Positions 16,395 through 36,137 of a DNA stretch of 64,000 nt are shown here, in pieces. The notes beneath the pieces were generated by a model, which saw only the letters and a list, made by a program, of their open reading frames with translations, was not told the DNA's origin and did no database searches. Every line of letters starts with the position of its first letter. Within the stretch, counting starts at the first letter, position 1. This DNA is from an uncultured delta proteobacterium. GTDB taxonomy: Bacteria > Desulfobacterota > Syntrophia > Syntrophales > UBA2185. The stretch spans positions 96,001 to 160,000 of the forward strand of contig CAVSPA010000010.1 in the NCBI GenBank assembly GCA_963729715.1. The letters are read 5' to 3'. The position numbers and the translations under genes were made by a program.

Positions 16395-16404
16395 GTCTTA
16401 TTTT

Positions 16405-18276: not shown

Positions 18277-18642
18277 ATGGCATGGGAAGTTGAATATACT
18301 GATGAATTTGAAGCATGGTGGATTGGTCTGACCGAGGAAGAACAGATCGATATTGATGCGGTTGTCGGTTTATTGGAAGAAAAGGGGCCTCATCTGCCGT
18401 ACCCTTATAGTTCAGATGTCAAAGGAACCAAGTACGGATCAATAAGGGAGTTACGGATTCAGCATAAAGGTAAACCGTATAGAGTCCTTTATGCCTTCGA
18501 TCCTCGCAGAGCGGCAATTCTACTTATTGGCGGCAGAAAGACAGGTGGTACGCGTTGGTATGAAAAATACGTGTCTGTGGCTGAAAGAATCTATGAGGAA
18601 CATTTGAAGTCTTTAAAAGATGAACAAGGGGGCGCATTATGA
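18277..18642 (+). CDS. higB: HigB/RelE-like (Gp49-type) toxin
   Basis: GP.L.YPYS..VKG, ELRIQHKGKPYRVLYAFDPRR.AILL.GG; toxin-first gene order. Confidence 0.88.
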   Translation: MAWEVEYTDEFEAWWIGLTEEEQIDIDAVVGLLEEKGPHLPYPYSSDVKGTKYGSIRELRIQHKGKPYRVLYAFDPRRAAILLIGGRKTGGTRWYEKYVSVAERIYEEHLKSLKDEQGGAL

Positions 18643-18980
18643 GCAAGCCTTACTCTATGCTGAGAGGAAAAATGAAACCCGCAGCACGAAAAGAAGCAGC
18701 GAAGAAGACAAAGGCCTTACTTGATGCAATGCCTTTGCAGGAATTGCGTCATGCCAGGAATTTGAGCCAGGAACAACTTGCACAAACATTGTCTGTCAGG
18801 CAGGCTGCAGTATCAAAGCTTGAAAAGCGGACAGACATGTATATCAGCACATTAAGAAATTTTATCAAGGCCATGGGAGGCGACCTGGAGATCATCGCCA
18901 AATTTCCTGATGGGTCTGTTCAGATCAGTCAATTTGAAGACATTGCTGCGAAGACAGAAAAGAGTAATGTACCGGCGTAA
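18639..18980 (+). CDS. higA: XRE-family HigA-like antitoxin
   Basis: LQELR...SQEQLA..L...QAAVSKLEKRTDMYISTLR; ATGA overlap with the toxin gene. Confidence 0.88.
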   Translation: MSKPYSMLRGKMKPAARKEAAKKTKALLDAMPLQELRHARNLSQEQLAQTLSVRQAAVSKLEKRTDMYISTLRNFIKAMGGDLEIIAKFPDGSVQISQFEDIAAKTEKSNVPA

Positions 18981-19398
18981 CGAGAAACCTTCTCTTCTTC
19001 ACAAACGGATTTGGCATTCCTGATGGACTGAGCATCTCACAAAGCAGTAACCCGAATCATCGGATGGGTTTATTGATAGTCACTTGAAATGTGCAATGGC
19101 TGGTCAGGTCTTTTCTTCGGTTGATAAAATATTGACAACTTCCTCAAGTGTCAGGCAATTTTGACTGGCATACTTTCTTTCAAACGGTAATCCTCATTGA
19201 CTGTTATGAATAAGAAAATATATTGCAACATGTAAAACTTTCTGCTAAGCAGTCTCTGCACCCCACCTGATATCAGAATGAGAACATACTCATTGAAATC
19301 AAGATGGCTGCTTATCTCTCAGGTCTCTACGGAGAAAGAGGCACGCTATTAAGAAAACCAATCCCAAATCGAAAAAGAATGCTGGCCCGCGCATACGG

Positions 19399-21036: not shown

Positions 21037-21281
21037 TATTTGCAGTCGTAAATTAGTAGATTTAGAGGCATTAGGCTTTCTCAAAGAATAATTCTTATAT
21101 TTCCCTCAGAGTTCCTCCGATATCAGATAAGTCAAACACTCCTCACAAATCAGACTTTGAGGCACTTGCGTTAATTTTTCCAAGAGTCTACTATTATGTA
21201 TAAATGATGTAATAGCATTCAAATTCATCCTGATGAAGAAACAAAAGCGTATTACTTTCACAATTCCGAACGAGGTAAAGC

Positions 21282-21719
21282 GTGACTGAAAACGAACCGG
21301 AAATCTTACTTGTAGAGCAGAGCAAATATGACGTGGAGTTTATGCTTAAAGCTCTTGAGAAGTATAATCTGACCGAGAAGGTTAAGGTCTTTCCGGATGG
21401 AGGAGAGGTTCTGGACTATATTTTTGCAACTGGTAAATATTCAGGGTGTGATACTTGCAAGAAACTCAGGGTGATTATACTGGACGTAAAGTTGCCGAAG
21501 GTTGATGGGCTTGAGGTTCTTCAGAGGATCAGGGCCAGCGAGAAGACGAGAATGATTCCCGTAGTCATTTTTTCATCGTCAACGGAAGACCGAGACAGGA
21601 CAGAGGGTTACCGCTTGGGAGTAAACAGCTACGTCATTAAACTCTCCTCTTATGAGAACTTCGTCAATACTGTCGCCGAAATGGGTTCCTACTGGATGTT
21701 GCAGAACATCTCTGCCTGA
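21282..21719 (+). CDS. Single-domain response regulator
   Basis: ILDVKLPKVDGLEVL...IPVVIFSSS...GVNSYVIK. Confidence 0.88.
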   Translation: MTENEPEILLVEQSKYDVEFMLKALEKYNLTEKVKVFPDGGEVLDYIFATGKYSGCDTCKKLRVIILDVKLPKVDGLEVLQRIRASEKTRMIPVVIFSSSTEDRDRTEGYRLGVNSYVIKLSSYENFVNTVAEMGSYWMLQNISA

Positions 21720-21829
21720 TGAAAGCGGATCAAGATGCTTGAGACAAGCCATATTGATGGTGCCTTCCTAATATATCCTCCCCTCAAGTATTAAAGACTT
21801 CGATTTGTAATCGTTGGTATAACCGATGC

Positions 21830-22252
21830 GTGGATACATTGCTGCTTAATGAGACATCCATGGATGTACTAAGGGAGAAGCTAAAGCTTCAGAAAGATGG
21901 CGTTGAACATGTCTTTTACAATCACTTGTTAAGGCCTGTTCAATTTCGGAACCTCATACGCGCATTTGATAAAGCCGTTGAAAAGGCTGGTATAGATGAC
22001 CTGCGCTTCCATGATTTACCACATACTTTTGCTACTCGTCTTGTTCAGGGAGGTGTGGGGATATATGAGGTTCAGAAGCTAGGGAGATGGAAAAGTGTTA
22101 CCATGGTTCAACGATACGCCCACCATTACCCTGAAAGCCTCAGACCGGCAATAGAAGTCATGGATGGCATTAAGAAACCAATTATCACAAATTTATCACA
22201 ATTACAAAAAAATGGGGTTCATAAGCCCCATTTACAACTCGTAACATTTTGA
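21830..22252 (+). pseudogene. C-terminal remnant of the island A tyrosine integrase
   Basis: FHDLPHTFATRL (catalytic HxxR arginine replaced by proline) and MVQRYAH. The N-terminal domains are missing and it abuts att core 2. Confidence 0.85.
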
Positions 22253-22257
22253 TATTG

Positions 22258-22306
22258 CTGGTGGGCCGTATGGGACTTGAACCCACGACCAACGGATTAA
22301 AAGTCC
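22258..22306 (-). repeat. att core 2: 49-bp copy of the tRNA-Lys 3' portion (junction of islands A and B)
   Basis: Identical to 36061-36109. Confidence 0.96.
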
Positions 22307-22435
22307 ATACTGATGAAAATTGAGCACCGATGGGGATTGCAGGAATAGCCTGTGATCCCCATTTTTTTATTTATTTAAATGGTGACTTCTATTTTCATTT
22401 TTGTTGACTTTTGTCGAATAGTTTTTAATGGTAAT

Positions 22436-22454
22436 GGTTACAGATAGCGTTACA
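22436..22454 (+). repeat. Putative integrase arm-type sites of island B (left)
   Basis: GGTTACA-N5-CGTTACA has a 12-bp period, matching CGTTACA-N5-CGTTACA at 35985-36003. Confidence 0.65.
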
Positions 22455-22535
22455 TTCCGGGGATAGGGAGCGGCCCCGAATGGCGGTTTTCCTGGACCGT
22501 TTGACCCGGGCAGACAACAGAGCCGCCCTGATCGT

Positions 22536-23489
22536 TCATTGCTTGCGTCTAAAGGAATATCCTACTTTTTCTCCTATCTCTTTCAGGGACAAACCCTTTT
22601 TTCTCAAACGTTGAAGTCTTCTCTGGGTGCTTTTGATCTTTTGGCCAGCCGGGGTCAATCTCTTAGCCATAAGCGCGAGGGCTTTCTTTTCTGTCAATGC
22701 CCGATTAAGGTCTGTTATCTTATCCAGAAAATCTTCTGATTTCTCGTAGCGCCAGTTGCTCCGCTTTGGAGCGAGCTTGCCCGTATTAATCCAGGCATAA
22801 ACCGTTGTCCTTGGAATTTCATTATTCATTTTATCGGTAAAATACTTGCGATTATAGACCCTGACATGCGCGTCGAATCTCTCCTTCCCGTCGAACGCTT
22901 CTTTTGAATTTTCTCTTGTTTCGTCATTTTGTGCCCGTTCACCCATAGATATAAAGTGCATGAAGGACCGTAAGGCCTTTGCCGTCGGAGGGATTGAAAA
23001 TGTTTGGAGTCGCTCAAGAGTGTTTGTCGGGAAATCGTTGCTCCCGGAGAAAGCGGTCAAAGCTTGATAAAAGACTTCTTTATCTGCAAGGCCGTCATGG
23101 TAGAGATAAAGCGCGGTCTGTAGTGTTATAGATTTTTTGTCTGGACGGCCAGGATCAACGACAAGGAGATTTTGATAAGGCAGTCGACCGGAAAGACTTG
23201 CCTTGAATCTCTTGACACCTTTCTTCCGCGTGTCATGGAATATTGATTCTTTCAACGGGCCTCGATGTATTGCCAAGCGAATGTTTTTCTTGTTGGGAAG
23301 CTGACCCATCAAATAGAAATGATCACCTTCTTCGTATATACGTAACTTACACGGTTTATTGTAAACGCTCGGATATTCTGCTTTCAATTCCTCCTTTCTC
23401 TGAAGGATGTACTTGTTAACTGTAGCCTTAAAGGCCCTCGAGTGCCCCACAATTTGATCTGCAATATACTTAATCCCTGAAATGTCCAT
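22536..23489 (-). CDS. Hypothetical protein with probable C-terminal HTH (candidate regulator)
   Basis: IPRTTVYAWI and KGLSLKEIGEKVGYS HTH-like segments; divergent from the replication operon. Confidence 0.55.
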   Translation of the reverse strand: MDISGIKYIADQIVGHSRAFKATVNKYILQRKEELKAEYPSVYNKPCKLRIYEEGDHFYLMGQLPNKKNIRLAIHRGPLKESIFHDTRKKGVKRFKASLSGRLPYQNLLVVDPGRPDKKSITLQTALYLYHDGLADKEVFYQALTAFSGSNDFPTNTLERLQTFSIPPTAKALRSFMHFISMGERAQNDETRENSKEAFDGKERFDAHVRVYNRKYFTDKMNNEIPRTTVYAWINTGKLAPKRSNWRYEKSEDFLDKITDLNRALTEKKALALMAKRLTPAGQKIKSTQRRLQRLRKKGLSLKEIGEKVGYSFRRKQ

Positions 23490-23559
23490 GAGTCATGCTC
23501 AATGTCGCTTTTGGTAATTAATAGCCTATGAGTAAAAGAAAGGCAAGGAGAAACAAAAT

Positions 23560-23805
23560 ATGGACAAAGAAAGGTATGTTCCGTTGAGAGACTGGAGTCG
23601 CCTGAAGCTTTTTGGTTTTCCATGGCAGAAGTCGTACGTATATAAATTGATTCACCGGAAGGAGTATCCGCAGCTCTTCCTAAAAATAGGCGGTGTTGTA
23701 GTTGTGGATCTGAATGCTTTGGAAAAAATAATTTCGTCTGCATCGTGCTCGACAAGGGAAAATGTGCCTGAGAAGGAGGAGCCGAACACGTGTGGCCTAA
23801 GTTAG
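23560..23805 (+). CDS. Small AlpA/MerR-like DNA-binding protein
   Basis: AGGAG RBS; KSYVYKLIHRKEYP...KIGG..VVD pattern. Confidence 0.5.
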   Translation: MDKERYVPLRDWSRLKLFGFPWQKSYVYKLIHRKEYPQLFLKIGGVVVVDLNALEKIISSASCSTRENVPEKEEPNTCGLS

Positions 23806-24008
23806 TTTTTATTTTCAGCGAAAAGGGGCTCGAGCGATTGCGGATTTTTGGAAAGACGCCCGAGGAGAAGAAAAGAGGTGAGGATTTGATTTCGCGGCTG
23901 GAGATTGGGTTGGTCCTCATCGACTATGAGCTTCGGGGTGAGCTCGATAAACTGCGTGAAATCCTGGGCTCTACAGAGCTTGCTGATGGCGGGCGGCAGA
24001 GGCATTGA
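23790..24008 (+). CDS. Hypothetical protein
   Basis: AGGAGG RBS; in the operon. Confidence 0.5.
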   Translation: MWPKLVFIFSEKGLERLRIFGKTPEEKKRGEDLISRLEIGLVLIDYELRGELDKLREILGSTELADGGRQRH

Positions 24009-24029
24009 TAAGGAAGGGGGAATATTATT

Positions 24030-24266
24030 GTGAGTAGTGTAATTGTTCACGAGGGAGGTTTTGTAGAGGTGGAAATTGACCAGGGCCTGCTTGTCCTAAC
24101 AGAGCAGGAATATAAAAAGGCTCTTAAACGTGGCGAGCCTGTTCTCAGAAACCGACAAAGGACCCCGGTACCATTAAAGAGGGTGCTACTCGATGTTGTT
24201 AAGAAATGTCAAGGTTTAGGGCGCTATGTCATTCCAGCCAACCAAAAAGTTCCGGCGCGAATATAG
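24030..24266 (+). CDS. Hypothetical protein
   Basis: In the operon with an RBS upstream. Confidence 0.45.
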   Translation: MSSVIVHEGGFVEVEIDQGLLVLTEQEYKKALKRGEPVLRNRQRTPVPLKRVLLDVVKKCQGLGRYVIPANQKVPARI

Positions 24267-24420
24267 GCAACTCTTCCGGCAGGACCCGGCCGCAGCGAAT
24301 CTCTTTCTTTTGCTTGCCGAGCTCGCTGATAAGAGGGGCCGGATTGTTACTGATGAGAAGGAGCTCGCCGTCTTGATGGCTGCGCGTTTTGAAGATCCCA
24401 AGGAGTATGCACTGAAATGA
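24226..24420 (+). CDS. Hypothetical protein
   Basis: ATGA overlap with the replication initiator. Confidence 0.5.
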   Translation: MSFQPTKKFRREYRQLFRQDPAAANLFLLLAELADKRGRIVTDEKELAVLMAARFEDPKEYALK

Positions 24421-25202
24421 ACCGGGGTTATATTAAACTGTGGCGCAAGCTGCTCGATGCCGGGTGGCTCAAGAACCATCGTACCTGTGTCTTCTGGATA
24501 TATTGTCTATTAAAGGCATCACATAAAGCATACACGGTGATTGTCGGGACTCAGGCCGTTGATTTACTCCCCGGACAATTCGTCTTTGGACTGAGGAAAG
24601 CCGCTGATGAAACGGGCCTTACCGTCCGGCAAATCCGCACCTGTATTGCATTTCTAATTTCTACGCAAAATATGACAATCAAAACGACAAACAGATTTTC
24701 GATAATTACCATTGTAAATTGGGATATTTATCAACCTGCCAAAATCGAAAACGACACACAGAACGACAAACCATCGACAAGCAAACGGCAACATACAATA
24801 AGTAGAGAAGTTAAAAATAATATATATAGTCAGAATTCTCTCGAGGTCCTTTCCTATCTAAATGAGAAGACTGGTCGTAAATATCGTGATGCTTCCCATA
24901 TAGAAGCTCGTCTCAAGGACGGGGGCACTATTGCAGAATGTAAGCAGATCATCGACGCAAAGCTGACAGACCGTTACTTCATTGATAACCCCAAATATCT
25001 AAATCCCGTTACGCTGTTCCGCAAGTCTCATTGGGATAAGTATGTCAACGAGGGTCCGGTCCCGACAAAGACAGAGGCACCATCACCTCTTACTTGCCCC
25101 CGCTGCGGGCAACGCATCGTGGTCGAGGCTGATTTACGGGAAGGGGGCTGCGTTCATTGCCTTCGCAGATTAGAAAGCGCGAGACCGAGTAGGGGTAACT
25201 GA
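24417..25202 (+). CDS. Phage-type replication initiator (replisome organiser with conserved phage C-terminal domain)
   Basis: GYIKLWRK...GQFV...SIITIVNWDIYQ at the N-terminus; VLSYLNEKTGRKY...KYLNPVTLF at the C-terminus; coupled to dnaB. Confidence 0.8.
   Translation: MNRGYIKLWRKLLDAGWLKNHRTCVFWIYCLLKASHKAYTVIVGTQAVDLLPGQFVFGLRKAADETGLTVRQIRTCIAFLISTQNMTIKTTNRFSIITIVNWDIYQPAKIENDTQNDKPSTSKRQHTISREVKNNIYSQNSLEVLSYLNEKTGRKYRDASHIEARLKDGGTIAECKQIIDAKLTDRYFIDNPKYLNPVTLFRKSHWDKYVNEGPVPTKTEAPSPLTCPRCGQRIVVEADLREGGCVHCLRRLESARPSRGN
24750..24830 (+). other. Putative replication origin (iterons plus AT-rich tract) inside the initiator gene
   Basis: AACGACA, AACGACA, ATCGACA and AACGGCA at 24750, 24762, 24773 and 24784, followed by an AT-rich run. 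Confidence 0.55.
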
Positions 25203-26581
25203 TGACTCGCAATAATAATATATCTCAACATCGTACACCACCCCACAGTCTTGAAGCCGAGCGTGCTGTTCTTGGAGGCATGCTCCTGGATAATAAGGCA
25301 GCCCCTATAGCCTTGACGCACCTGGACGCAGAGGGAAAAGACTTTTATTCAGAAGCGAACCGGACCATCTTTAAGACCGCCCTCAGCCTGATTGAAAAAG
25401 GCTTCTGTGATTCCCTCCTCCTTATCAATGCCCTCAGAGACAGAGGCACGCTCGATAAGGTCGGCGGTGCAAGTTATCTTGCGAGTCTTTATGACGACGC
25501 CATATCAAGCGCGAACATCGAGCATTATGCCCGGATCATCCGAGAGAAGTCTCTTGCTCGGGCCCTGATCGGTGCAGCTCAGTCCATCCTCGAGCTGGCC
25601 TATTCTCCGAATGGAACAGGCGCAGCGGAGTTACTGGAAGAAGCTCAGAGGTCCGTCTTTGAAATTGCCGCATCGGGGAAGAAATCAGATATCCGGAAAG
25701 CGCGAGAAGTAGCGTCAAAGGCTTTTTCTATCATCGAGAAACGGTATCAGCAAGGGGATGAACTGATCGGAATCAGCACGGGCCTGAAAGACCTGGATGA
25801 TATTACCTTGGGTTTGCAGGACTCCGAACTTGTTATTGTCGCGGGAAGGCCAGGCATGGGGAAGACAGCCCTTGCCGTCAATATTGCCGAGCATGCAGCC
25901 CTGGAGGATGTGCCTACCGCGATCTTCTCGCTCGAAATGTCGGCTGAATCTTTGATGCTCCGGATCTTTGCAGGAATGTCCGGGATCGATGCAAGGCAGA
26001 TCAGGCGCGGATTAATCGGGGAAGCCGAGTGGCCGCGTCTTGTGCAGGTTGCAGGTTTGATCGGAATGGCGCCGCTATTCATAGACGACTCTCCCGGGCT
26101 CACCCCCTTAGAACTGAAAGCCAGGGCACGGCGGCTGAAACATGAACACGGAATCGGACTCCTCATTCTTGATTACCTGCAGTTGATGAGAGGTACATCA
26201 AAACGAGAGAGCCGGGAACAGGAGATTGCTGAGATCAGCCGTTCATTGAAAGCTCTGGCCAGGGAATTGGAAATCCCGGTTATAGCCTGCTCTCAGTTGA
26301 ACAGGCAGGTTGAAAACCGATCAGACAGGCGACCAGGGCTTGCAGACCTCAGAGAATCCGGCGCGATTGAGCAGGATGCAGACGTGATCATGTTCTTATA
26401 CAGGGATGAGATTTACAACAAGTCTGAAAACAATCCTGAAAAGGGAGTCGCTGAGATCATCATCGGCAAGCAGAGGAACGGCCCTTCAGGATACAGGACC
26501 AGGGTACAGTTCCAGACGGAGATTCAGAAGTTCCGGGATCTCGCAAGGCAGGAGTCGAAAGAGGACCGGCGATATAGATAA
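25202..26581 (+). CDS. dnaB: Replicative DNA helicase (element-encoded)
   Basis: PPHSLEAERAVLG, GRPGMGKT, FSLEMS, LDYLQLM, SQLNR, DLRESGAIEQDAD and KQRNGP. Confidence 0.96.
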   Translation: MTRNNNISQHRTPPHSLEAERAVLGGMLLDNKAAPIALTHLDAEGKDFYSEANRTIFKTALSLIEKGFCDSLLLINALRDRGTLDKVGGASYLASLYDDAISSANIEHYARIIREKSLARALIGAAQSILELAYSPNGTGAAELLEEAQRSVFEIAASGKKSDIRKAREVASKAFSIIEKRYQQGDELIGISTGLKDLDDITLGLQDSELVIVAGRPGMGKTALAVNIAEHAALEDVPTAIFSLEMSAESLMLRIFAGMSGIDARQIRRGLIGEAEWPRLVQVAGLIGMAPLFIDDSPGLTPLELKARARRLKHEHGIGLLILDYLQLMRGTSKRESREQEIAEISRSLKALARELEIPVIACSQLNRQVENRSDRRPGLADLRESGAIEQDADVIMFLYRDEIYNKSENNPEKGVAEIIIGKQRNGPSGYRTRVQFQTEIQKFRDLARQESKEDRRYR

Positions 26582-26609
26582 GGCGAAAATACCGTTACAC
26601 AGGCGTTAC

Positions 26610-26849
26610 ATGATGAAGGAAACCCGCACCGACAAAGGAACACAGAAGGACGCACGGATTGGTAATCCAATTCCGAAACGCCTCTTTAATCTTAAAGAGG
26701 CTGCTGCATACCTTGGCCGGCCAGTGTCCGGAGTCCGCACCCTGATTTGGAATGGCCGGTTGCAATATATCCAGGAAGGGAAAAAGCAGTATATCGATCT
26801 GAGAGACTTGGATAATTACGTCGATCGCAATAAACAAACGATGATTTAG
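26610..26849 (+). CDS. Excisionase-family HTH protein
   Basis: KRLFNLKEAAAYLG...VRTLIWNGRL...IDLRDLD. Confidence 0.78.
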   Translation: MMKETRTDKGTQKDARIGNPIPKRLFNLKEAAAYLGRPVSGVRTLIWNGRLQYIQEGKKQYIDLRDLDNYVDRNKQTMI

Positions 26850-26864
26850 GAAAGGAGAGACATC

Positions 26865-28046
26865 ATGAGTGGCGTACTTGGTAGCATAGGAAACACATTA
26901 TTCGGCAGCTCGCAGAATGCGCAGCAGACGGGCTCGACAACACCAACGTTTGCATCGCAGGGGCAATCGGATTTATTTAATCAGCTGACACAGCTTCTGA
27001 GCGGCCAGTTGGGACAGGGCGTCCCGACGTATACAGGCCAAACGGGTCAATCAACGGCAGCCGGAACGCAGCCCCTTCAGAATCTGTCTTACGACATGAT
27101 TCAGCAGCTGTTGGGCCAGTATCCGGGCGGCGCTTCGAGCATACCGCAAACCTCCCAGGCGGGCGGCGTCTTGAGCAATATACTCAATACCGGCTTGGCA
27201 TCGAACGTGTCTCAAGCTCCGACCTACGCGCAAGGTGCCGGGACCCTTGATACCCTCCTGCAGAATTGGGACCCCAAATCGGCCACGCAAATGTGGCAGA
27301 GCACGTATGTCAACCCCGCTCTCGACACATGGAAGAAAGACGTGGCGCCGGCGATCAACGAACAGTTCATTGGAATGAATGCCGAGCGTTCACAGGCCGA
27401 CCCTGACGCCCTGGCCAAGTCTCTGGGTACGGTGCAGACGAATCTCCAGGGCCAGCTTGCAAACATTCTTTACAGCGGGCAACAGGCGAATCTACAGCAG
27501 CAGCAGACCGGCGTGAACCAAGCGCTTCAGTATGCAGAACTTCCGCTTTCATTGTCGCAAAATGCGGCTAACCTACAGGCCCAAGGAGTTACTCAGGCAG
27601 GTCAATACGGCACGAACATACTTGACAGTATCATGCAGGAAATCGGAACGGGTCTGTCCGGAGGTTCTACACAATATGGCGTAGCCCAGAATCAGGCCAC
27701 GGCCGGTTATCAGAACTGGCTGTCAGGACAGGGTTACAGCAATCCCTATCTGTCATATCTCCAGCAAGCTTTAGGCAATACCTACGGAGCGCAGCCGATC
27801 GTACAGGGGCCGCAGACGACGCCGGGGCTTCTTTCCTCCATACTCCCAGGGCTGAGTACCGGGCTCGGCTTAGGAATGGGCAGTAACTTGGCTGGCAGCG
27901 GTTCGAGCTTAAGTGCTTTGTTAAATAGCTTAATGGGTAGCAGCGGCGGAAGTTCTCCATTATCTCTATTAACTCCACAGTCCGCACTCACAACTCAAGC
28001 CGGTGGTCCTTTCTCGGTATTATCAGACCTTGCACTTGCACCATAA
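26865..28046 (+). CDS. Gln/Gly/Ser-rich protein, putative phage DNA pilot/ejection protein
   Basis: AGGAG RBS. Starts GVLGSIGNTLFGSS, has Q-rich low complexity, a Gly-rich hydrophobic C-terminus and very few charged residues. Compositional inference only. Confidence 0.5.
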   Translation: MSGVLGSIGNTLFGSSQNAQQTGSTTPTFASQGQSDLFNQLTQLLSGQLGQGVPTYTGQTGQSTAAGTQPLQNLSYDMIQQLLGQYPGGASSIPQTSQAGGVLSNILNTGLASNVSQAPTYAQGAGTLDTLLQNWDPKSATQMWQSTYVNPALDTWKKDVAPAINEQFIGMNAERSQADPDALAKSLGTVQTNLQGQLANILYSGQQANLQQQQTGVNQALQYAELPLSLSQNAANLQAQGVTQAGQYGTNILDSIMQEIGTGLSGGSTQYGVAQNQATAGYQNWLSGQGYSNPYLSYLQQALGNTYGAQPIVQGPQTTPGLLSSILPGLSTGLGLGMGSNLAGSGSSLSALLNSLMGSSGGSSPLSLLTPQSALTTQAGGPFSVLSDLALAP

Positions 28047-28057
28047 GGAGGTAAATC

Positions 28058-29596
28058 ATGGCAATCGTATTTGATAAACCCGCAGTAGTTGACCCCAACA
28101 ATATCGCCGGAATCGGCTCGGCTCTCGGTACGGCTCTTGGGCAGGGCTACGCGCAGCAGACGCAGGCGAATAAGGAACAGGCCGTATTAGACCCAATTCT
28201 TGACCAGGTCGCTTTTGGTGATGACCCCAGAGAGAGGGCAACTTTATTGATGAAAGTGCTATCAAGCCCTGCTTTATCACAGCAATCAAAGGCAAATTTT
28301 ATCTCTGCGGTACACGCACTTCCGACGCCGGAGAAGGAATCCAAAGTTGTCAACTGGTGGGATGAAAATGGTGCTCCGCATACCGAGGTAATTAAAACAT
28401 CCGAGTACAATAAAAGGGCAGTCGAAATAGAGAAGGCTGGTGGTACTTTTGATAAACCAGGGCGGTCTATCTTGTACGACCAGACGACCGGCAAGCCTGT
28501 ATGGCGGGGCCCAGAAACGAAAATGCAGCAGATGTTGGAAGGTCACGAGACTTGGACAGACGAACCGCCTGAGAAGGGAAAGCAATACTTGATCCGTAAT
28601 GATGAGGACCCTAAACGGGTGCAGCAGATTACCTTGAAGTCCGGAGAGGAAATTCCGGAAGGATGGACTGAAGTCTCCGCTGGGAAAAAAGACGAGAAAG
28701 CGCCAGGGACAAAGACTTTCCAAATAGGTGGACAGGAGGTGCCTCATCAATGGGATGCCAAGGCCGGAGTGTGGAAGCCGATCAAGGGCATGGGCGGTCC
28801 GAAGTGGAATCCAAAGGGGGATGACGAGGACAAAAAGGTTAAAAGGTCGGATCTCCAGGCTGTGTACAGCTACGAGAAAAAGGCTTTTGCTGATCCTGAT
28901 AGCTATGAGCTGTCTGAAGAAGAACAGAAAAAGTACGAGGAGAATCCCAAGAAGTATAAAGTTCCCAAAGGAATGCAACTAAAACAGGAAGTGCTCGATC
29001 ACGCAAATGAGCTTCGTGGCGCGGCGAGAATGTCACTGAGGGAAGAAAAAGAAATTCCCTATAAGGAAACGAGCCACTCAACCCTCCTCGGAATCAAAAT
29101 ACCCGGATCGGAAACAACAAAAGATATCTCCGGATACGAATATCCGGAAGCGGGCAAGGAAACGGGTGCGAAGAAAAAAGAAGTTGCTGATGGTGATGTT
29201 GGCAAGCAACTGGAGGGCAAGAAGGCGGGTCATTACCGCGTCAATGGCAAAGAGATCAAATGGGATGGGTCAAAGGTGATTGCCGGTGCTGGGACCGAAG
29301 GCAAAGAAAAGCCCATGGATAAAATGCCTGATGCTGCAAAGAATAAAGACCGCATTATCAGAGACACGTCGACAGGCAAAAAATACAAGAGTGATGGCAC
29401 ACAGTGGAAGGAAGAGCCGGCGAAGTCAAATATCAAAAAAGACGCAAACCATGATCAGGCTGTCAGTTACCTGAAGGGCGCAAAGACCAGGGATGAAGCG
29501 ATAAAAAAGCTTAAAGAATTGAAGAAGCAGGGTTGGACCCGAGAGCAGCTTGAAGGGATCGTACAGGACTCCGGCGCTGAATCGTTAGAAGAATGA
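28058..29596 (+). CDS. Lys/Glu-rich protein, putative phage DNA transfer/ejection protein
   Basis: GGAGG RBS; GIGSALGTALGQGY N-terminus; short Trp-containing beta repeats such as IIRDTSTGKKYKSDGTQW. Inference. Confidence 0.45.
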   Translation: MAIVFDKPAVVDPNNIAGIGSALGTALGQGYAQQTQANKEQAVLDPILDQVAFGDDPRERATLLMKVLSSPALSQQSKANFISAVHALPTPEKESKVVNWWDENGAPHTEVIKTSEYNKRAVEIEKAGGTFDKPGRSILYDQTTGKPVWRGPETKMQQMLEGHETWTDEPPEKGKQYLIRNDEDPKRVQQITLKSGEEIPEGWTEVSAGKKDEKAPGTKTFQIGGQEVPHQWDAKAGVWKPIKGMGGPKWNPKGDDEDKKVKRSDLQAVYSYEKKAFADPDSYELSEEEQKKYEENPKKYKVPKGMQLKQEVLDHANELRGAARMSLREEKEIPYKETSHSTLLGIKIPGSETTKDISGYEYPEAGKETGAKKKEVADGDVGKQLEGKKAGHYRVNGKEIKWDGSKVIAGAGTEGKEKPMDKMPDAAKNKDRIIRDTSTGKKYKSDGTQWKEEPAKSNIKKDANHDQAVSYLKGAKTRDEAIKKLKELKKQGWTREQLEGIVQDSGAESLEE

Positions 29597-30151
29597 AGCT
29601 CACATTGAGGCAAGAAATCTTTTGCAGGGAGTATGTCGTTGATTTCAACGGTAGTCGAGCAGCTGTTGCTGCAGGGTACAGTAAGAAAACCGCGGACCAG
29701 CAGGCATCAAGGTTGTTAAAAAACAGTGGAGTTCAAGGCGCCATCAAAAAAGAGATAGAGAAGCGGTCGAAACGTATTGAGATCACCCAGGACAGAGTTC
29801 TGGAGGAAATTGCCCGCGTTGCTTTCGCCGACCTATCTGATTTTTTGGATGTCGATGAGGCCACGGGGGCCGTCAGAGTGAAAGGATTTGATGAAATGCC
29901 GGTACTGGCAAGCCGTGTCCTTGAATCCATTTCAGAGGATCGGGTTATTCGGGAAGCCGCAGATGGGAAGCAAGTTATTATTCATGACAAGCGTAAAATC
30001 AAGCTGCACGACAAGATGAGAGCCCTTGAGATGTGCGGAACGCCATTTGGGCTTGTTCATGGAAAGGCTTAGGGTGGAAGGCGGGCTTATTCACCTGAGC
30101 ATAAGTCCTGACATTAGGAAGAAAAAGGGATCGGGGTTGTCTAAGAAATGA
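29593..30151 (+). CDS. terS: Terminase small subunit, with an apparent +1 frameshift near 30040
   Basis: LTLRQEIFCREYVVDFNGSRAAVAAGYS..TA..QASRLL and IKLHDKMRALE. The conserved RHLGLF continues in the shifted frame. Confidence 0.88.
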
Positions 30152-30645
30152 ATAACCTGGCCGACGAGGTCCGAGGGGTGATCACCGCGGAAGAATTCTT
30201 TGAGAAATATTTTCAGCAAAAAGCTGCCCTCTTTGATTTGATGGCCAATCACTTGTTTACGCAGTTTGTTGTTATCAACCCGACAGTGAAGAAATCGGAT
30301 GAGCCGTTGCACGATGTTAAGGTAGTGAAGCTGCCTAAATCGTGGGTAGATGACATTAATCTATTTCTGGAAAAGTTCAGCTACAAGGATTTTGTGATCA
30401 ATGGAGAACCTCTGCGGCCTGATTACACTGATTCTTCCTGGCTTCTGAAGGTTGGCCGCATCTGCACCTACCACGCAGAGGCGTACAGAGGGTTCGCGGG
30501 GCATGTCGATTTTGAGCTGGTGATGAAGATGGACGATGCCTCGAGTCGCTTGCTCGGAATCTGTCATGCGCTGGTTGCTTATTTGGCGGCTGCGGGCGAC
30601 GAGGAAGCAGATCTCTTCTTCAGGCCTTCGAGCCTAAGCCATTGA
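30148..30645 (+). CDS. Hypothetical protein
   Basis: ORF starts at an ATGA overlap with the repaired terS. Confidence 0.6.
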   Translation: MNNLADEVRGVITAEEFFEKYFQQKAALFDLMANHLFTQFVVINPTVKKSDEPLHDVKVVKLPKSWVDDINLFLEKFSYKDFVINGEPLRPDYTDSSWLLKVGRICTYHAEAYRGFAGHVDFELVMKMDDASSRLLGICHALVAYLAAAGDEEADLFFRPSSLSH

Positions 30646-30749
30646 GGGAAGAAGAAGGCCTCCGATGACTAAATACCTATGTTTCGTGTTTTATAGCCGT
30701 GTACACGCCGCATATTGAGTTTAGCGGTTCATATGAGGTCATTCTCAGA

Positions 30750-30808
30750 CCCCCTTTTTCACGTTTCCGCTTTTACGACGGCCGTAAAGATGAAAGAGGG
30801 GATTTTTA
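30750..30808. terminator. Hairpin between convergent genes
   Basis: CCCCTTTTTCA...TGAAAGAGGGG followed by ATTTTT. Confidence 0.45.
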
Positions 30809-30819
30809 TGAACTCCTTC

Positions 30820-31389
30820 TTATGATTCCCAAACCCGCTCCCTTTCGGTTATCTGGTGGATGAAGTGCGGACGTTCCCTGAAGACCCTTTCCCGGTCCAC
30901 ATCAGTGATCGAACCCTCTGGAAGCCCGACAAGCTCATGAGACAGATGGTCGTGGACCAGAGGCGAAAGAGTGAATATACCGACCTGGCCGGCATAGCAT
31001 CTCTGTCTGAGCGGCTGCACAAGTGTTATAAGTCCCGCCTGGAGCAATCCCGCAACTACCGCCTGTTCGATTGGAAGCTTGATGGTGTTCCTCTCCTGAA
31101 TGATGAATTCCCTCATCACAAGCTGTTCGTTTAAGTCCAACCGCGCGAGGCGCTCCAGGACGTGCCGCTTGAATACACGCTTACGGCGCCATTCAACGAG
31201 GCGAGGAGTACCCCACCAAATGAACTCGACTGTAAGCATAGCAGAACCGAGTACCACCGCAACGATGCCGAAGGCAACATATTGCTGGCGAAACTCTGGT
31301 ACGAAAAGGAGAATTGTGCCAGCGATCACCATGCAGGCTGACAGCTTGGGCGACTTAAGAACATCTATAATGTTGGCTAACCGTTCCAT
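30820..31389 (-). CDS. Superinfection exclusion B (SieB)-family protein
   Basis: Two N-terminal TM segments, then L..L...E..V.REF.....NT..LP....V.GL...G.I pattern. Confidence 0.65.
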   Translation of the reverse strand: MERLANIIDVLKSPKLSACMVIAGTILLFVPEFRQQYVAFGIVAVVLGSAMLTVEFIWWGTPRLVEWRRKRVFKRHVLERLARLDLNEQLVMREFIIQERNTIKLPIEQAVVAGLLQAGLITLVQPLRQRCYAGQVGIFTLSPLVHDHLSHELVGLPEGSITDVDRERVFRERPHFIHQITERERVWES

Positions 31390-31502
31390 CTACTGAAACC
31401 TTTCTTGCACCGAACGTAGCGCAGCATGGCCATAGATGATGGGTTCGATATAACGTCCTCCATCATAACTAATGATTAACCTGCAACAGTGTCGGTATAA
31501 AA

Positions 31503-31958
31503 TTATACTTCCTTTGAAAGTTCTTCAGATAATTTTTTCTCCCAGAAAAAGTGCCTATATATAGTAGCTCTTATTAAAGAAATTATGATGAAGCATTTAA
31601 GGCAAACAAAAAAGCTTATGATTGGTGATAAATAAATTCTCTTAGAATGATACTCGGGAGAAATGACAACGAGGAAAAATAGAGTAAGTATTATCCAAAG
31701 GATGGAGAGTATTTTAATGGTTTTCCTATAGAAAGGATTACTTTCTTCTTTCCATCTCTGATCAGAAACGGAATTAATCTTATCATCAACTAACCGATAC
31801 TGGTTATCTTCTTCATTTAATAGGAGTTGGCATTTGTCGTCTTTGCAATAGTAGAATTCCTTACCAACGCTTAAACAGTTTTCACAAAGTAATTTACCGC
31901 ATGAATGACAAAAAGAAATGGAATTCTTATCAGGATGATTAGAACATTTTCCTTTCAT
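31503..31958 (-). CDS. B-box-type Zn-finger membrane protein
   Basis: CSNHP...CHSCGKLLCENC...YC...C plus two TM segments. Confidence 0.7.
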   Translation of the reverse strand: MKGKCSNHPDKNSISFCHSCGKLLCENCLSVGKEFYYCKDDKCQLLLNEEDNQYRLVDDKINSVSDQRWKEESNPFYRKTIKILSILWIILTLFFLVVISPEYHSKRIYLSPIISFFVCLKCFIIISLIRATIYRHFFWEKKLSEELSKEV

Positions 31959-31980
31959 CTGTCATACTCCTTTATGAATT

Positions 31981-32349
31981 TCATTGACACTGTCTCTTTT
32001 TGTGCTTGCCTCGATATTGCCGCCCCAAGAGTTTGAGTGCTTTTTCCACTGCTTGGTGTGATTCCCAACAAGCGAGTCCGAATGCAGGCTGCCGCACTTC
32101 TGTCATACGTTCTGCCGATGCCATGAGGTGAGATGAAATATTTCTGGCAAGTTCTTGTCTGTACCACCGCGTAATGGCCCGATGGACAAATCCATCGATA
32201 TCGAGGATGCAGACATCAACAAACTCATGGGCGGCCAGCAGGATTCGATCTGGGATTGGAACCCGTAGATTGCTGAGACGTGCATCGATGAGGGTCATCC
32301 ATTCCCTAACGGCTTGTTCGAACAATGCGTTTTTAGATTCATTATTCAT
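31981..32349 (-). pseudogene. Fragment of a HEPN-like protein
   Basis: ACWESHQAVEKALK resembles the HEPN QAxEKxxK motif. The ORF ends soon afterwards. Confidence 0.45.
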
Positions 32350-32405
32350 GCAGAGTGTCCATGCAGGGTCCGTAGGAAGCCAATCGAAAATGGCACTTCA
32401 AATTG

Positions 32406-32738
32406 TTAGGCGGTATTATTCTTTTCTTTCTTGATCTTGAAGGCAAGAATAGAAGCTACAGCAATCCCGATTGTGACAACATTAATGATTGACCATAACT
32501 TTCTGTTCAGGTGTATCCGAAAAATCGGGTTATAAACCAAAGCCGTGATTCCCAAAACCCACACCCAGCGCTGCTTTTCGTGTTCGTGCGCTTGGAAGGC
32601 GAGGTAGGCGAATATCCCGCAGCAAACCCAGCGTAGCAACATGTAGTAGCCGTAGGGATTGTCCGGGTTCAGCGCCCAGAGTAGCATTAGGCTCGCGATA
32701 ACCTGTGGAATCCAAATTCTTAGAGATGAACTCTCCAT
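32406..32738 (-). CDS. Small membrane protein (DUF6804-like)
   Basis: PYGYY.LLRW and L.YNP...IHL.R..W..I motifs. Confidence 0.65.
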   Translation of the reverse strand: MESSSLRIWIPQVIASLMLLWALNPDNPYGYYMLLRWVCCGIFAYLAFQAHEHEKQRWVWVLGITALVYNPIFRIHLNRKLWSIINVVTIGIAVASILAFKIKKEKNNTA

Positions 32739-32753
32739 AAAAGCTTCTTGTCA

Positions 32754-33341
32754 TTATTTCTCTGCTTGCCCAGCTGGAGCCGGAGCGGGTGCTTCTTGCT
32801 GTCTTTCCTTTGGAAAAACCTCATCAATGATGGACGATCTCTTTCGTTCCCTGCATTCCTCGAAACGTTGAAATATTTCCTCCTCGGTGTCCAGCCGTTT
32901 TTGTCCAAGATACATCCTGTCAATAGTTTTGAGATATTCGATTTCTGATGTCGAGAGATTTATCAACGTGTAATCGATCACAATGGACTCCCCGCCCGAT
33001 TTCCTGTCCTCCCTCCAGTAGGGCCGGAATTTCAACATATGACTCGCTCCGGTTATGTGACCGATTTTTGCGTAATCTTCCGACGTGAGGCCGCTGGCGA
33101 TAAGTTTTTTCTCATCGAGAACATTTGCCAAATTGCTTCTATCTACGATTGGAATGTTGGAATAACGCATTGCCATCTTGATAATATCCTTCTCGGTCTC
33201 TTTGCAGAAATCATGATCCACCCCCTCGCATAGAAGGACAATTGATTTGAGATTCTTGATTCTGCCACAATCGAGCGCCCCCACATCGATGGTCCAAATG
33301 GTCAGTGTCGTGACGGCAATAAGTAGAAATATCTTCTTCAT
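32754..33341 (-). CDS. Secreted protein with CsgG/TolB_N-like segment
   Basis: Signal peptide; IVDRSNLANVLDE....SGL....KIG.ITGA. Confidence 0.55.
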   Translation of the reverse strand: MKKIFLLIAVTTLTIWTIDVGALDCGRIKNLKSIVLLCEGVDHDFCKETEKDIIKMAMRYSNIPIVDRSNLANVLDEKKLIASGLTSEDYAKIGHITGASHMLKFRPYWREDRKSGGESIVIDYTLINLSTSEIEYLKTIDRMYLGQKRLDTEEEIFQRFEECRERKRSSIIDEVFPKERQQEAPAPAPAGQAEK

Positions 33342-33367
33342 GTGACTTCACACTTTCTCGGTCGACG

Positions 33368-33868
33368 TCATTCTTCGGATATCATTTCTTCCGATGCAAG
33401 CTGGATCTTTAATGCCCACTCCCTTATGAGATCCTCGATATTGTTTGGCAGTCGGTCCGGTGGGTCCTGATCCAGATACGGGCTCACCAGGTCCGCCCTC
33501 ACCAGCTCGTCGGCCTGGTTTCTCGGGAGCCCTCTCTCTTCCAGCTTGTACTCCGCGATCTCAGCCCTCTCTGCCACTCGGTCGAGCTCCTTTTCCAGCC
33601 TGTCATCCAGGAACATCCTCCACAAGTCTTTTGGCCCGTTGGCCAGAAGGTACTCCAGATGGTCGCTCCAGTACCGGCTGGCTTTCGGATTGTCCAATAT
33701 CTCTTCTGCTGCCTGTAACACCCTCTCTGTCTCTTTTGTCTTCCGTGGCTTCAACAAGCCCTTGCGCTTCAATCTCTCCAAGAATATCGGAGCCAACTTT
33801 TCCGCTACTCGCTTCGATTGCTGTGCGGTCAATTCCTTCTTCTTCGGCCTCGGGACATCCTTTTTCAT
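33368..33868 (-). CDS. Hypothetical protein (weak TnpV-like resemblance)
   Basis: H..YL....P......L...L...L......A...ADELV pattern, judged by eye. Confidence 0.4.
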   Translation of the reverse strand: MKKDVPRPKKKELTAQQSKRVAEKLAPIFLERLKRKGLLKPRKTKETERVLQAAEEILDNPKASRYWSDHLEYLLANGPKDLWRMFLDDRLEKELDRVAERAEIAEYKLEERGLPRNQADELVRADLVSPYLDQDPPDRLPNNIEDLIREWALKIQLASEEMISEE

Positions 33869-33925
33869 GGGAGCACCCCTTCCGAATGGTAGAAATACTG
33901 TGTAAGGAAACGGTTTGGTTAAAGG

Positions 33926-34087
33926 TTACTTCTTGGATTTCTTATCTTGCCGATCGTATTTCTTGAGAAGGTCCTGGATGGCCTCTTCCAGGAGATCATT
34001 AAGAGGTTTTTCGAGGTCAATAGCGAGTTTTTTAATCTCCTTCTGGAGATCGTTTTCGATTCTTGTTGATAGGTTTTTTCGAGCCAT
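33926..34087 (-). CDS. Ribbon-helix-helix DNA-binding protein (53 aa)
   Basis: Manual translation MARKNLSTRIENDLQKEIKKLAIDLEKPLNDLLEEAIQDLLKKYDRQDKKSKK. Below the ORF-track length cutoff. Confidence 0.8.
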   Translation of the reverse strand: MARKNLSTRIENDLQKEIKKLAIDLEKPLNDLLEEAIQDLLKKYDRQDKKSKK

Positions 34088-34115
34088 GACTGAAGGCTAT
34101 AGAATAATCTTGCAA

Positions 34116-34140
34116 AATGCAACAAGAAATATGTTGCATT
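34116..34140. promoter_or_regulatory. Operator-like inverted repeat in a divergent promoter
   Basis: Perfect inverted repeat AATGCAACA-N7-TGTTGCATT between the RHH gene and the int-side genes. Confidence 0.55.
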
Positions 34141-34322
34141 GTTCATTATATCGTGCTATCTGTATATCATACTTTACAGATGTTCACTCTCCAGACCATA
34201 GACAAATGAATAGTAAGCAAACAGATAAGCCTGAAGATACCCCATGTGGTGACGCATGGGGCGGGTAGTCTATGCCCGGGAGATGTCTTCAGGTTTAATT
34301 TTTTATGAAAGGAGATGAGGAA

Positions 34323-34538
34323 ATGACAAAGGAAAAAACAATTAACAAAAGTGAAGGTGTCGAAGTCGATGCCACGGACAATCTAAATCGTTGTGCGTGG
34401 AAACTCCAGGGAATAGCCGGGTTGTTTTTTGACCAGCAGGACACAGGAAAGACTCTATCTCGAGATGAGGTGAATGGGATTTCATTTCTTCTCGATCAAA
34501 TCGCTGATGATATTCTGGAGAACACAGAAAAACTTTAA
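34323..34538 (+). CDS. Hypothetical protein
   Basis: GAGGA RBS before ATG 34323. Confidence 0.5.
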   Translation: MTKEKTINKSEGVEVDATDNLNRCAWKLQGIAGLFFDQQDTGKTLSRDEVNGISFLLDQIADDILENTEKL

Positions 34539-34571
34539 CTCATCAACCGCGGAAAGGAGAGCAAGAGGACT

Positions 34572-34799
34572 ATGAAAAAAGTGACAAATATTTCTGAAGC
34601 TGTAGCGGAAGCAAAAAGGACAAAAATAGATCATCTTTTGGCTATGACAAGGGAAGTCCTGGAATCTGATAGTCAATTTTCTGAAATTCTGACCACAAAT
34701 ATCTTGTGCTGGAAAGAGACGGTAGATAATGAAAGACGAGTAAGAGCACTTGAGCTTAAAATGGGAATCGTTCCGGCCGCTCGGATTGTAAAAAAGTGA
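34572..34799 (+). CDS. Hypothetical protein
   Basis: GAGGA RBS. Confidence 0.5.
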   Translation: MKKVTNISEAVAEAKRTKIDHLLAMTREVLESDSQFSEILTTNILCWKETVDNERRVRALELKMGIVPAARIVKK

Positions 34800-34920
34800 A
34801 TCTGAATGGGGGCGGCGGGCAAGAACCGAGCGCGTCACGGGTTACGTGGCCGGCACGGAAAAGGACTCCCCTGGTCCCTGCCCGTGGCAGAACTCAGGAA
34901 GAAAGTGAGGGACTTTAATT

Positions 34921-36126
34921 ATGGGAACGATTTATAAGAGAGGCAAGATTTTATGGATCAAGTATCATCGTGCCGGCAAGCCATATTACGAGAGCACTAA
35001 GAGCTCAAAAGAGGCCAACGCAAGACGGCTCCTGAAAAGGCGAGAAGGTGAAATCGCAGACGGTAAATTGCCGGGAATTTATTTTGACAAGATCCTCTAT
35101 GACGAACTTGCCGCGGATCTCCTGAATGACTACGAACTCAACGGCCGGAAAAGTCTCAACCGATTGAAGATCAGCTTGGAGCATCTTGAGAAATCTTTCA
35201 CTGGATATCGCGTCGTGAATATCTCGACGGCCAGGATCAAGGCCTACATCGATCATCGACTTGAAGAGGGCGCGGCTCATGGGACAATTAACAGAGAGCT
35301 CGCCGCTTTGAAAAGAATGATGGTGATAGGCTCCCAGAGTACCCCGCCAAAAGTCAATCGCGTTCCGTTTCTTCCCATGTTGAAAGAGAGTAATGTACGG
35401 AAGGGATTTTTTGAGCATGGGGATTTTATCGCTCTAAGAAATTCCTTGCCGGCATACTTGGCAGGGCTTGTCACGTTTGCCTATAAAACAGGATGGAGGC
35501 TGTCGGAGATAACCGGGTTGACATGGGATCGGGTTGATCTCGATAACGGAATAGTAACCCTGAATCCGGGGGAAACGAAAAACGATCAAGGCCGGACGGT
35601 TTACCTTGATGAAGAATTGCGGAAGACGTTCGTGGCGCTATTGGAAAGCCGGAAGAAAGGCTCCTCTGTTCTGCCCCAGGTATTTTTGAATGAGGACGGA
35701 AAGGATTGCGTGAAGAGATTTGACAAGGCATGGGCCTCGGCATGTATCAAAGCAGGTTTTTGGGCCTGGGGCGAAGATGGAAAGCACAAAATACCCACGA
35801 AGCTCTTTCACGATCTCAGGAGAACGGCTGTCAGGAACATGGTCAGGGCTGGAATACCTGAACGCGTTGCAATGATGATCTCAGGGCATAAAACAAGGTC
35901 AGTCTTTGACCGATACAACATCGTAAGTGATACCGATTTGAAAGAGGCTTCGAACCGTCAAAAGTTGTATCTTGAAAGCCAAACCGTTACAAAAACCGTT
36001 ACAGTCATGGATTTCGAGAGGGGAAAAGGAAACAAAGCAGTACCTAAGCCTGCGGAAATACTGGTGGGCCGTATGGGACTTGAACCCACGACCAACGGAT
36101 TAAAAGTCCGCTGCTCTACCAACTGA
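34921..36126 (+). CDS. int: Phage-type tyrosine integrase of island B
   Basis: TINRELAALKR, TGWRLSE, KN, FHDLRRTAVRNM and SGHKTRSVFDRY. The ORF reads through the att core and tRNA. Confidence 0.95.
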   Translation: MGTIYKRGKILWIKYHRAGKPYYESTKSSKEANARRLLKRREGEIADGKLPGIYFDKILYDELAADLLNDYELNGRKSLNRLKISLEHLEKSFTGYRVVNISTARIKAYIDHRLEEGAAHGTINRELAALKRMMVIGSQSTPPKVNRVPFLPMLKESNVRKGFFEHGDFIALRNSLPAYLAGLVTFAYKTGWRLSEITGLTWDRVDLDNGIVTLNPGETKNDQGRTVYLDEELRKTFVALLESRKKGSSVLPQVFLNEDGKDCVKRFDKAWASACIKAGFWAWGEDGKHKIPTKLFHDLRRTAVRNMVRAGIPERVAMMISGHKTRSVFDRYNIVSDTDLKEASNRQKLYLESQTVTKTVTVMDFERGKGNKAVPKPAEILVGRMGLEPTTNGLKVRCSTN

Positions 36127-36137
36127 GCTAACGGCCC
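36062..36137 (-). tRNA. tRNA-Lys (UUU)
   Basis: GGGCCGTTAGCTCAGTTGGTAGAGCAGCGGACTTTTAATCCGTTGGTCGTGGGTTCAAGTCCCATACGGCCCACCA, a 76-nt cloverleaf with encoded CCA. Confidence 0.98.

Follow-up and report, generated by a model that had tools for sequence, protein, structure and literature searches.

Can a phage satellite that borrows its capsid supply proteins for its own DNA delivery? The question is raised by a 13.8-kb island in the genome of an uncultured deltaproteobacterium of the order Syntrophales. We analyzed a window of 64,000 nucleotides (nt) from the 3.76-Mb source assembly (GCA_963729715.1, here G000); it spans positions 96,001-160,000 of contig CAVSPA010000010.1, and all coordinates refer to it. 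Two genes of the island, orf1 and orf2, resemble the DNA ejection genes of short-tailed phages (podophages). We lean toward the model that the island is a satellite of podophages akin to the phage-inducible chromosomal islands (PICIs), in which the helper gives capsid, portal, large terminase (TerL), tail and the third ejection protein, and the satellite's own first two are predicted to be loaded. That it is a satellite of some kind is probable.

The ejection-type genes orf1 and orf2

A sequence-only reading had described this 13.8-kb element, bounded by attachment (att) sites, as carrying an integrase, helix-turn-helix (HTH) genes, an initiator plus DnaB, an xis-like gene, two large open reading frames (ORFs), a small terminase gene (terS) and a SieB cargo block. 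The 49-bp repeats at its ends and scans of 23 island ORFs against Pfam and PHROG bear this out. The scans also returned no capsid, portal, TerL, tail or lysis family among these ORFs, in agreement with the same reading. Its further claim, that the island supplies its own DNA ejection proteins, stands in part: homology and gene position in podophages support it for two of three ejection genes, and the third is absent from the island.

A word-indexed search found seven homologs of orf1, and a profile search found 1,817 cluster representatives at E<=0.001. The closest orf1 and orf2 homologs lie next to each other within podophage head-tail modules in all eight loci retrieved (four viral and four metagenome contigs, two of which, L018 and L025, apparently represent one phage). 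One of these phages, G339, is a 56.6-kb temperate podophage contig, 82% complete, that carries an integrase, a repressor and Rep. Its genes run terS, TerL, P22 portal, capsid, adaptor, nozzle and, farther on, the orf1 homolog, the orf2 homolog and a gene for a 3,994-residue protein (L053 5503-17487); between the adaptor and the orf1 homolog lies a gene for a 600-residue virion protein. In the 3,994-residue protein, which we take to be DarB-like, methylase and SNF2 helicase domains come after a transglycosylase SLT domain. Orf1 is 58% identical to its G339 homolog. Orf2 aligns with the product of the next G339 gene at 26% identity over 422 columns and at 65% over the last 46 residues, and its N-terminal part is 35-37% identical to L025 and L026; it is conserved with the phage gene at both ends, with inserted modules in between. 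A mosaic organization is likewise described for gp20 in PMC10883804. The ejection operons of P22 and T7 form a small-medium-large series whose last T7 member has a transglycosylase fold, as reported in PMC8954989. We equate the G339 series with this operon.

Among members of the orf1 family, 23 of 137 match phrog_4287, annotated as "DNA ejection protein". It is the only match for seven of eight re-scanned relatives, mostly across much of their length (E 4e-7 to 5e-3), with scores that the Gly/Gln-rich composition may inflate. We disregarded the tail-fibre PHROG matches of orf1 relatives, which fall in a C-terminal segment (about residues 285-369 of P0014). No similarity of orf1 or orf2 to P22 or T7 ejection protein sequences was detected.

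The possibility that a capsid, TerL or portal fold is hidden among the hypothetical proteins was also examined. Among the unassigned ORFs only orf1, orf2 and a 317-residue HTH ORF are long enough for one. A structural model of Orf1 built from 137 sequences (predicted local distance difference test, pLDDT, 70; predicted template modelling score, pTM, 0.41; a model from 8 sequences reached pLDDT 37) is all-helical and therefore does not have a capsid, portal or TerL fold. In a wide structure search, a 102-residue chain of the T7 tail complex 7EY7 ranked second of 48,161 (Z 8.3, root-mean-square deviation 4.1, 101 residues aligned), tied with unrelated helical chains; its range, 38-139, agrees with the solved part of gp14, and we treat it only as a lead. 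The same holds for the P22_gp7 cluster that appears at 0.91 among the Atlas neighbours of Orf1, behind unnamed tailed-phage clusters at 0.95-0.96; those of Orf2 lie below 0.9. PDB sequence searches with orf1, orf2 and a 165-residue ORF gave empty or chance matches. Altogether, homology and gene position indicate that orf1 and orf2 are likely internal virion (ejection) genes of podophages.

The donor podophages also encode a conserved 441-residue enzyme, presumably ATP-grasp-like, in the virion module just before the ejection genes (L017 7411-8736; L025 8062-9390).

Gene content and surroundings of the island

The features of the island are as follows.

22258..22306, plus strand: left att copy, 49 bp, 3' end of tRNA-Lys, identical to 36061-36109
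22536..23489, minus strand: 317-residue ORF with a C-terminal HTH (HTH_17 E 1e-4, weaker than the cut-off), divergent from the main operon across a 70-bp gap; likely a regulator
23560..23805, plus strand: 81-residue ORF in the AlpA/Cox position; no Pfam or PHROG match and no BLAST match to the AlpA of L122
23790..24420, plus strand: three small ORFs (72, 78 and 64 residues), of which the 78- and 64-residue ORFs are common to capsid-less elements of relatives
24417..25202, plus strand: replication initiator rep, 261 residues (phrog_2514 6e-28, phrog_428 9e-21)
25202..26581, plus strand: DnaB helicase, 459 residues (PF03796 7e-101)
26610..26849, plus strand: xis-like HTH gene, 79 residues (HTH_17 8e-8); homologs adjoin integrases in most relatives retrieved
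26865..28046, plus strand: orf1, 393 residues, likely first ejection protein (P22 gp7 / T7 gp14 position), homologous to the G339 podophage gene
28058..29596, plus strand: orf2, 512 residues, likely second ejection protein (P22 gp20 / T7 gp15 position), mosaic, homologous to the next G339 gene
29593..30072, plus strand: terS, overlapping the orf2 stop (PF03592 6e-36), with a +1 frameshift near 30039
30148..30645, plus strand: 165-residue ORF after terS; no Pfam, PHROG, PADLOC or useful PDB sequence match
30820..31389, minus strand: SieB-family membrane protein, cargo (PF14163 4e-13)
31503..33868, minus strand: cargo block of a B-box membrane protein, a short HEPN-like ORF, DUF6804, a CsgG-like protein and a 166-residue ORF (Pfam)
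33926..34087, minus strand: ribbon-helix-helix (Arc-like) regulator (phrog_3180 6e-12)
34921..36126, plus strand: tyrosine integrase, 401 residues (PF00589 9e-22), reading through the right att into the tRNA
36061..36109, plus strand: right att copy, inside tRNA-Lys(TTT) at 36062-36137 (minus strand)

The two att repeats are identical and lie 13,803 bp apart, which gives the element its size. The genes from xis to terS are tightly packed, with gaps of 15 nt (xis-orf1), 11 nt (orf1-orf2) and -4 nt (orf2-terS), and clear ribosome-binding sites precede both orf1 and orf2. Like PICIs, the island is an att-bounded chromosomal element with an integrase and has no tail, holin, portal or connector genes; Rep and DnaB, not a primase, were counted as its replication module. 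The capsid, portal, TerL and head connectors that capsid-forming PICIs (cf-PICIs) encode were not found among its ORFs.

Several genes have kin in elements of related genomes: the 78-residue ORF (51% identical to L009, 45% to L118), the 64-residue ORF (54-56% to L089, L094 and L103), the 166-residue cargo ORF (60% to L009) and the integrase (78% to the G004 integrase at this site). The CsgG-like cargo gene (32754-33341) is 55-58% identical to the gene directly after the G339 repressor (L055 2971-3543). PADLOC gave no match in the 13 island proteins tested, no iterons were found in rep, the tRNA was the sole Rfam match in the island, and promoter and terminator predictions there were no more numerous than in shuffled sequence. 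Indels at 23133 and 33732 in low-depth contigs were not accepted as assembly errors, for the latter because the 166-residue ORF aligns in a single frame across 33732 with its G004 homolog.

The host genes that flank the island are conserved among ten genomes of the same genus. The 49-bp repeat, the 3' end of the tRNA-Lys gene, occurs three times in the G000 assembly; the third copy (4764-4812, one mismatch) bounds a second, unrelated island. This tandem island at the same tRNA-Lys (4764-22258, 17.5 kb) is without virion genes and encodes an HD-domain protein, a DUF932-like ORF, MscL, an OmpA-domain protein, a XerD-like integrase, a Gp49/HTH toxin-antitoxin-like pair, a histidine kinase, a response regulator and a gene pair that we assume to be IS3-like; an integrase fragment lies at 21830-22252. 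At the 13.8-kb island the integrase frame (34921-36126) runs through the right att, and the frame at the left att (22258-22330) ends after an equal number of codons with a different set of last five residues, so that the C-terminus of the integrase would be swapped on excision.

Recurrence of the design in related genomes

The sequence-only reading had called for a search for elements with the same gene order. The order rep-dnaB-xis-orf1-orf2-terS occurs in one of 301 genomes of the class, which is G000 itself, with no second element, whereas the design as such appears again with ejection genes of other families. None of 155 pattern matches to orf1 in genome contigs and none of 111 orf2 alignments in viral contigs was confirmed, and no identical element was found among GenBank phages. 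Since the orf1 family is present in no other of the 301 genomes, we screened by backbone. The xis anchor occurs in 34 of 339 genomes, and most of the 20 loci retrieved are xis-int pairs without the island backbone. TerS (PF03592) occurs at 41 places in 37 of 339 genomes, and all 40 loci outside G000 were retrieved. At 13 of them a PHROG TerL adjoins terS, and two more have a TerL-like and then a portal-like ORF. The remaining 25 include 11 with a primase or helicase immediately upstream and no TerL in view (four with less than 2 kb of contig left).

Two of these 11 loci carry ejection-type genes. The element in G008 spans 14.4 kb between 46-bp att repeats at the same tRNA-Lys and encodes Rep, a helicase, terS, an integrase and a 637-residue protein that matches phrog_770, DNA transfer protein (7e-10). 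The element in G186, cut by the contig end, has a primase, a helicase, terS, a 601-residue homolog (phrog_26400 2e-7) and a 428-residue partner. A third element, in G191 (11.6 kb, 51-bp att, same tRNA), has a Gly-rich 364-residue ORF between primase and terS that gave no family match and is a candidate only. The other eight are without a recognized ejection gene, which indicates that the module is optional.

Two further elements carry genes that belong to a second podophage family. In G004, at the integration site of the island, rep, dnaB and xis (70% identical to that of the island) are followed by a terS-like gene, TerL (phrog_2 2e-16; 59% to the TerL of phage G340) and genes for 178 and 251 residues; in that podophage family (21 viral loci), homologs of these two separate the virion genes from the medium and giant genes. 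Beside a tRNA-Val in G272, an integrase, AlpA, rep and dnaB accompany a tail-collar fibre and, from the same family, its first two genes, before the contig ends. No capsid or portal family was found in the five other Syntrophia elements, in which all but a few short or overlapping ORFs were scanned; three of the five are truncated by the end of a contig. Including the window, five elements place three ejection families in one slot, with G191 as one additional candidate.

These findings lead us to a broader hypothesis, held tentatively and with somewhat more doubt than belief: podophages may have a satellite class of their own, capsid-less islands that swap the DNA-entry machinery, in which a post-replication slot repeatedly captures ejection proteins and occasionally a tail fibre or TerL. 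The resulting particles would be chimeric, with the satellite setting the entry route, the sensitivity to exclusion and perhaps the host range. Satellite classes have been defined by the virion parts they steal, and chimeric tails have been shown only recently, for the PICI-like elements called PLEs. If the hypothesis is true, piracy extends to the internal DNA-delivery conduit of short-tailed phages, which governs entry and escape from SieA-type exclusion; many elements recorded so far as defective prophages or low-confidence PICIs form a functioning class; and satellites extend to syntrophic anaerobes.

Other elements encountered in this survey deserve mention. PICI-like elements of the TerS-only type, which have a primase or DnaB along with terS and in which no TerL was seen, are frequent in the class (L089, L096, L098, L113, L117, L083, L094), and two of them share a related opposite-strand cargo protein of about 1,000 residues. 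The cargo of the sister element in G004 (L009 8624-16906, G004:C23) looks defensive: a PD-T4-9-like protein with a SecB-like partner, a 929-residue NACHT protein and a methylase-Mrr fusion. At a tRNA-Ala, L115 293-10046 (G216:C136) encodes an integrase, a PmgG-like head morphogenesis gene (phrog_1114 1e-54) and terS, at which the contig ends, together with an 879-residue Ala/Gly-rich protein with a lysozyme-like C-terminal part; it may be a satellite of long-tailed phages that brings a tape-measure-like protein of its own.

Proposed mechanism, its alternatives and known systems

We envision a scenario in which infection or induction of a helper turns on the rightward operon, Int and Xis excise the island, and Rep and DnaB replicate it. 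TerS, where intact, would steer the TerL of the helper to satellite DNA, and Orf1 and Orf2 would enter procapsids beside the giant third ejection protein of the helper, with the conserved C-terminus of Orf2 as the natural contact. After adsorption the two proteins could make up those stretches of the DNA conduit that lie in the outer membrane and the periplasm. The likely gains would be a delivery device under satellite control, with enough copies to equip the satellite's particles, and a way around exclusion or interference directed at proteins of the helper. P22 virions take up quite foreign ejection proteins, according to PMC10883804, in which changes in gp16 and gp20 escape SieA exclusion and the ejection proteins set SieA sensitivity; PLE satellites, as described in PMC12987554, assemble virions that contain a tape measure and baseplate hub encoded by the satellite.

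The same P22 experiments lend themselves to a different view. Foreign gp7 alone works, and foreign gp20 or gp16 alone gives dead particles (PMC10883804). Orf1 and Orf2 of a PICI-like satellite, loaded into helper procapsids, could thus be a decoy that, through a mismatched gp20-like protein, makes helper particles non-infectious and protects the host population, as the P22 particles with foreign gp20 alone (Table 4 of PMC10883804) would suggest. Relatives with partial sets, the first protein only in G004 and a third-type protein only in G008, fit this, as does the frequency of assembly interference genes among satellites reported in PMC11364771. However, satellite particles would be poisoned too unless loading were selective, Orf2 has kept both termini similar to those of phage homologs (65% over its final 46 residues), as would a working partner, and the tail fibre of G272 and the TerL of G004 suggest use rather than sabotage. 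We consider such a role unlikely, though it deserves to be kept in mind.

A second alternative sees in the island a podophage prophage in decay or a mosaic formed by chance, with ejection genes that are leftovers or recent passengers and play no role in its spread. The terS frameshift, the lack of a helper and of evidence for excision, and a gene set unique among 301 genomes speak for this, and the CsgG-like gene is a second gene in common with phage G339, so DNA has entered from the G339 phage group more than once. Against it stand a perfect att pair and an intact integrase. Deletion scars, the sign by which the sequence-only reading would have recognized a former prophage, were looked for with 2,261 ORFs from 30 phage and prophage loci: tblastn found no remnants of other virion genes in either island and, in the two together, matched only rep, dnaB, the 64-residue ORF, orf1, orf2, terS, the CsgG-like and 166-residue cargo genes and int. 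The order terS-TerL-portal-capsid-tail-ejection expected of a deleted podophage was likewise not found there, in whole or in remnants. In G339 terS lies far upstream of the ejection genes, before TerL; in the island it lies 3' of orf2 and belongs to a different family. A layout of this kind does not result from a simple deletion. The nearest kin of rep and the 64-residue backbone ORF are in capsid-less elements, the same slot repeatedly holds ejection genes, from at least three families, and one independent contig has terS without the extra base. Altogether, we judge a remnant or mosaic improbable. Ordinary TerS-type piracy in which orf1 and orf2, expressed in the resident state, block the entry of related podophages together with SieB is very unlikely: the cargo does hold SieB and a membrane/CsgG-like block and Orf1 is predicted, by analogy with gp14, to insert into membranes, but both genes belong to the rightward replication-packaging operon, where xis and terS flank them, and not to the cargo block on the opposite strand, and no precedent was found in the literature examined.

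Several observations weigh against the model of a podophage satellite that loads its own two ejection proteins. Orf1 and Orf2 themselves match no named family in Pfam or PHROG, a Foldseek search of PDB with the Orf1 model gave no match at E<=0.001, and a viral structure library gave one unnamed match (template modelling score 0.21) and nothing significant. Between orf1 and three phage homologs dN is 0.38-0.48 and dS 1.5-1.9, a comparison that spans the phage lineage with dS near saturation and so does not isolate selection inside the island; what it reflects is an intact, conserved gene. By profile, the orf1 family occurs in one of 301 class genomes, its own copy. The PICI layout of int, AlpA, replication and TerS proposed by the sequence-only reading holds for its capsid-less arrangement; AlpA was not recognized, the 81-residue candidate being without a Pfam, PHROG or BLAST match. 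No capsid-size gene was identified among the 23 ORFs by Pfam or PHROG, which leave the 165-residue ORF unassigned. A two-of-three set would work only if Orf2 fits the third protein of the helper, since P22 particles with foreign gp20 and without its own gp16 are non-infectious. The terS of the G000 assembly has lost its conserved C-terminal motif to the +1 frameshift near 30039: compared with nine other TerS proteins, the G-R/K-H/E-L-G motif is missing from the frame at residue 150 and present in another frame. Finally, a co-resident podovirus prophage, a possible helper for which the sequence-only reading had advised a search, is not evident in G000: 38 queries (16 TerL, 10 portal, 12 capsid) returned no match, nor did the P22 portal or the G339 capsid; and no attP junction was seen in four shallow contig sets, whose depth is too low to tell either way. 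Weak TerL-profile matches in G000 were rejected, as they lie in host ORFs, presumably for helicases or PhoH.

Pieces 99-100% identical to the island and its flanks occur in four runs from two studies. In one of these runs, X1, perhaps related to the source sample, a contig of 219 bases (depth 4.3) is otherwise identical and is without one base at 30039. A single low-depth contig is thin evidence on terS, but homology agrees with it; the frameshift is either an error of the assembly or a change of recent date.

How does a podophage satellite with its own ejection proteins compare with known systems? The sequence-only reading had not recognized the design among described satellite families. In the literature examined, mostly open-access main texts, we did not find satellites with ejection proteins as a class, and a search for Syntrophales prophages and satellites gave one unrelated result only; the sole relevant case, and a precedent that qualifies the claim, is EcCIMP1, a PICI of E. 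coli MP1 mobilized by phage Kapi1 (PMC11773190). Like the island, EcCIMP1 is tRNA-integrated and capsid-less, and its genes 017-019, which follow the replication module, resemble those for DNA transfer and DUF2824 proteins and also occur in the helper; their role was left untested in that study. It has AlpA and a primase and, as described there, no identifiable terminase, whereas the island has terS, Rep and DnaB, and AlpA was not found. Its excision and transfer have been demonstrated.

The SatelliteFinder model of PICIs (PMC10085698) shares with the island an integrase, a replication module, terS (frameshifted in the G000 assembly), cargo, a comparable size (13.8 kb; PICI median 9.5 kb) and the lack of portal, tail and holin genes. 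In the island Rep-DnaB replaces the primase, and no capsid morphogenesis gene or AlpA/Stl/MerR was found; in the account of PMC10085698 the former is often absent outside E. coli. PICIs are typically described there without other structural genes, whereas the island has two likely virion proteins. In this it resembles the cf-PICIs, which also supply virion proteins, namely capsid, portal and terminase, and take tails (PMC10085698); the island is without those head genes. The P22 and T7 ejection operons (gp7-gp20-gp16; gp14-gp15-gp16) are matched in the donor phages by a small-medium-large series after the tail genes, with a helical, Gly-rich first protein (PMC8954989, PMC10883804), but the island holds the first two genes only. 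The PLE of Vibrio cholerae likewise encodes its own versions of parts of the DNA path (tape measure, chaperone, baseplate hub), with the remainder taken from the helper (PMC12987554). We claim no sequence relation between the two. The PLE parts have been shown to be incorporated, and the helper is a contractile-tailed lytic phage, whereas those of the island are predicted internal ejection proteins of temperate podophages. By analogy with these systems, the island would work as a pac-type PICI with added virion parts, in the manner of the PLE, and not as a cf-PICI.

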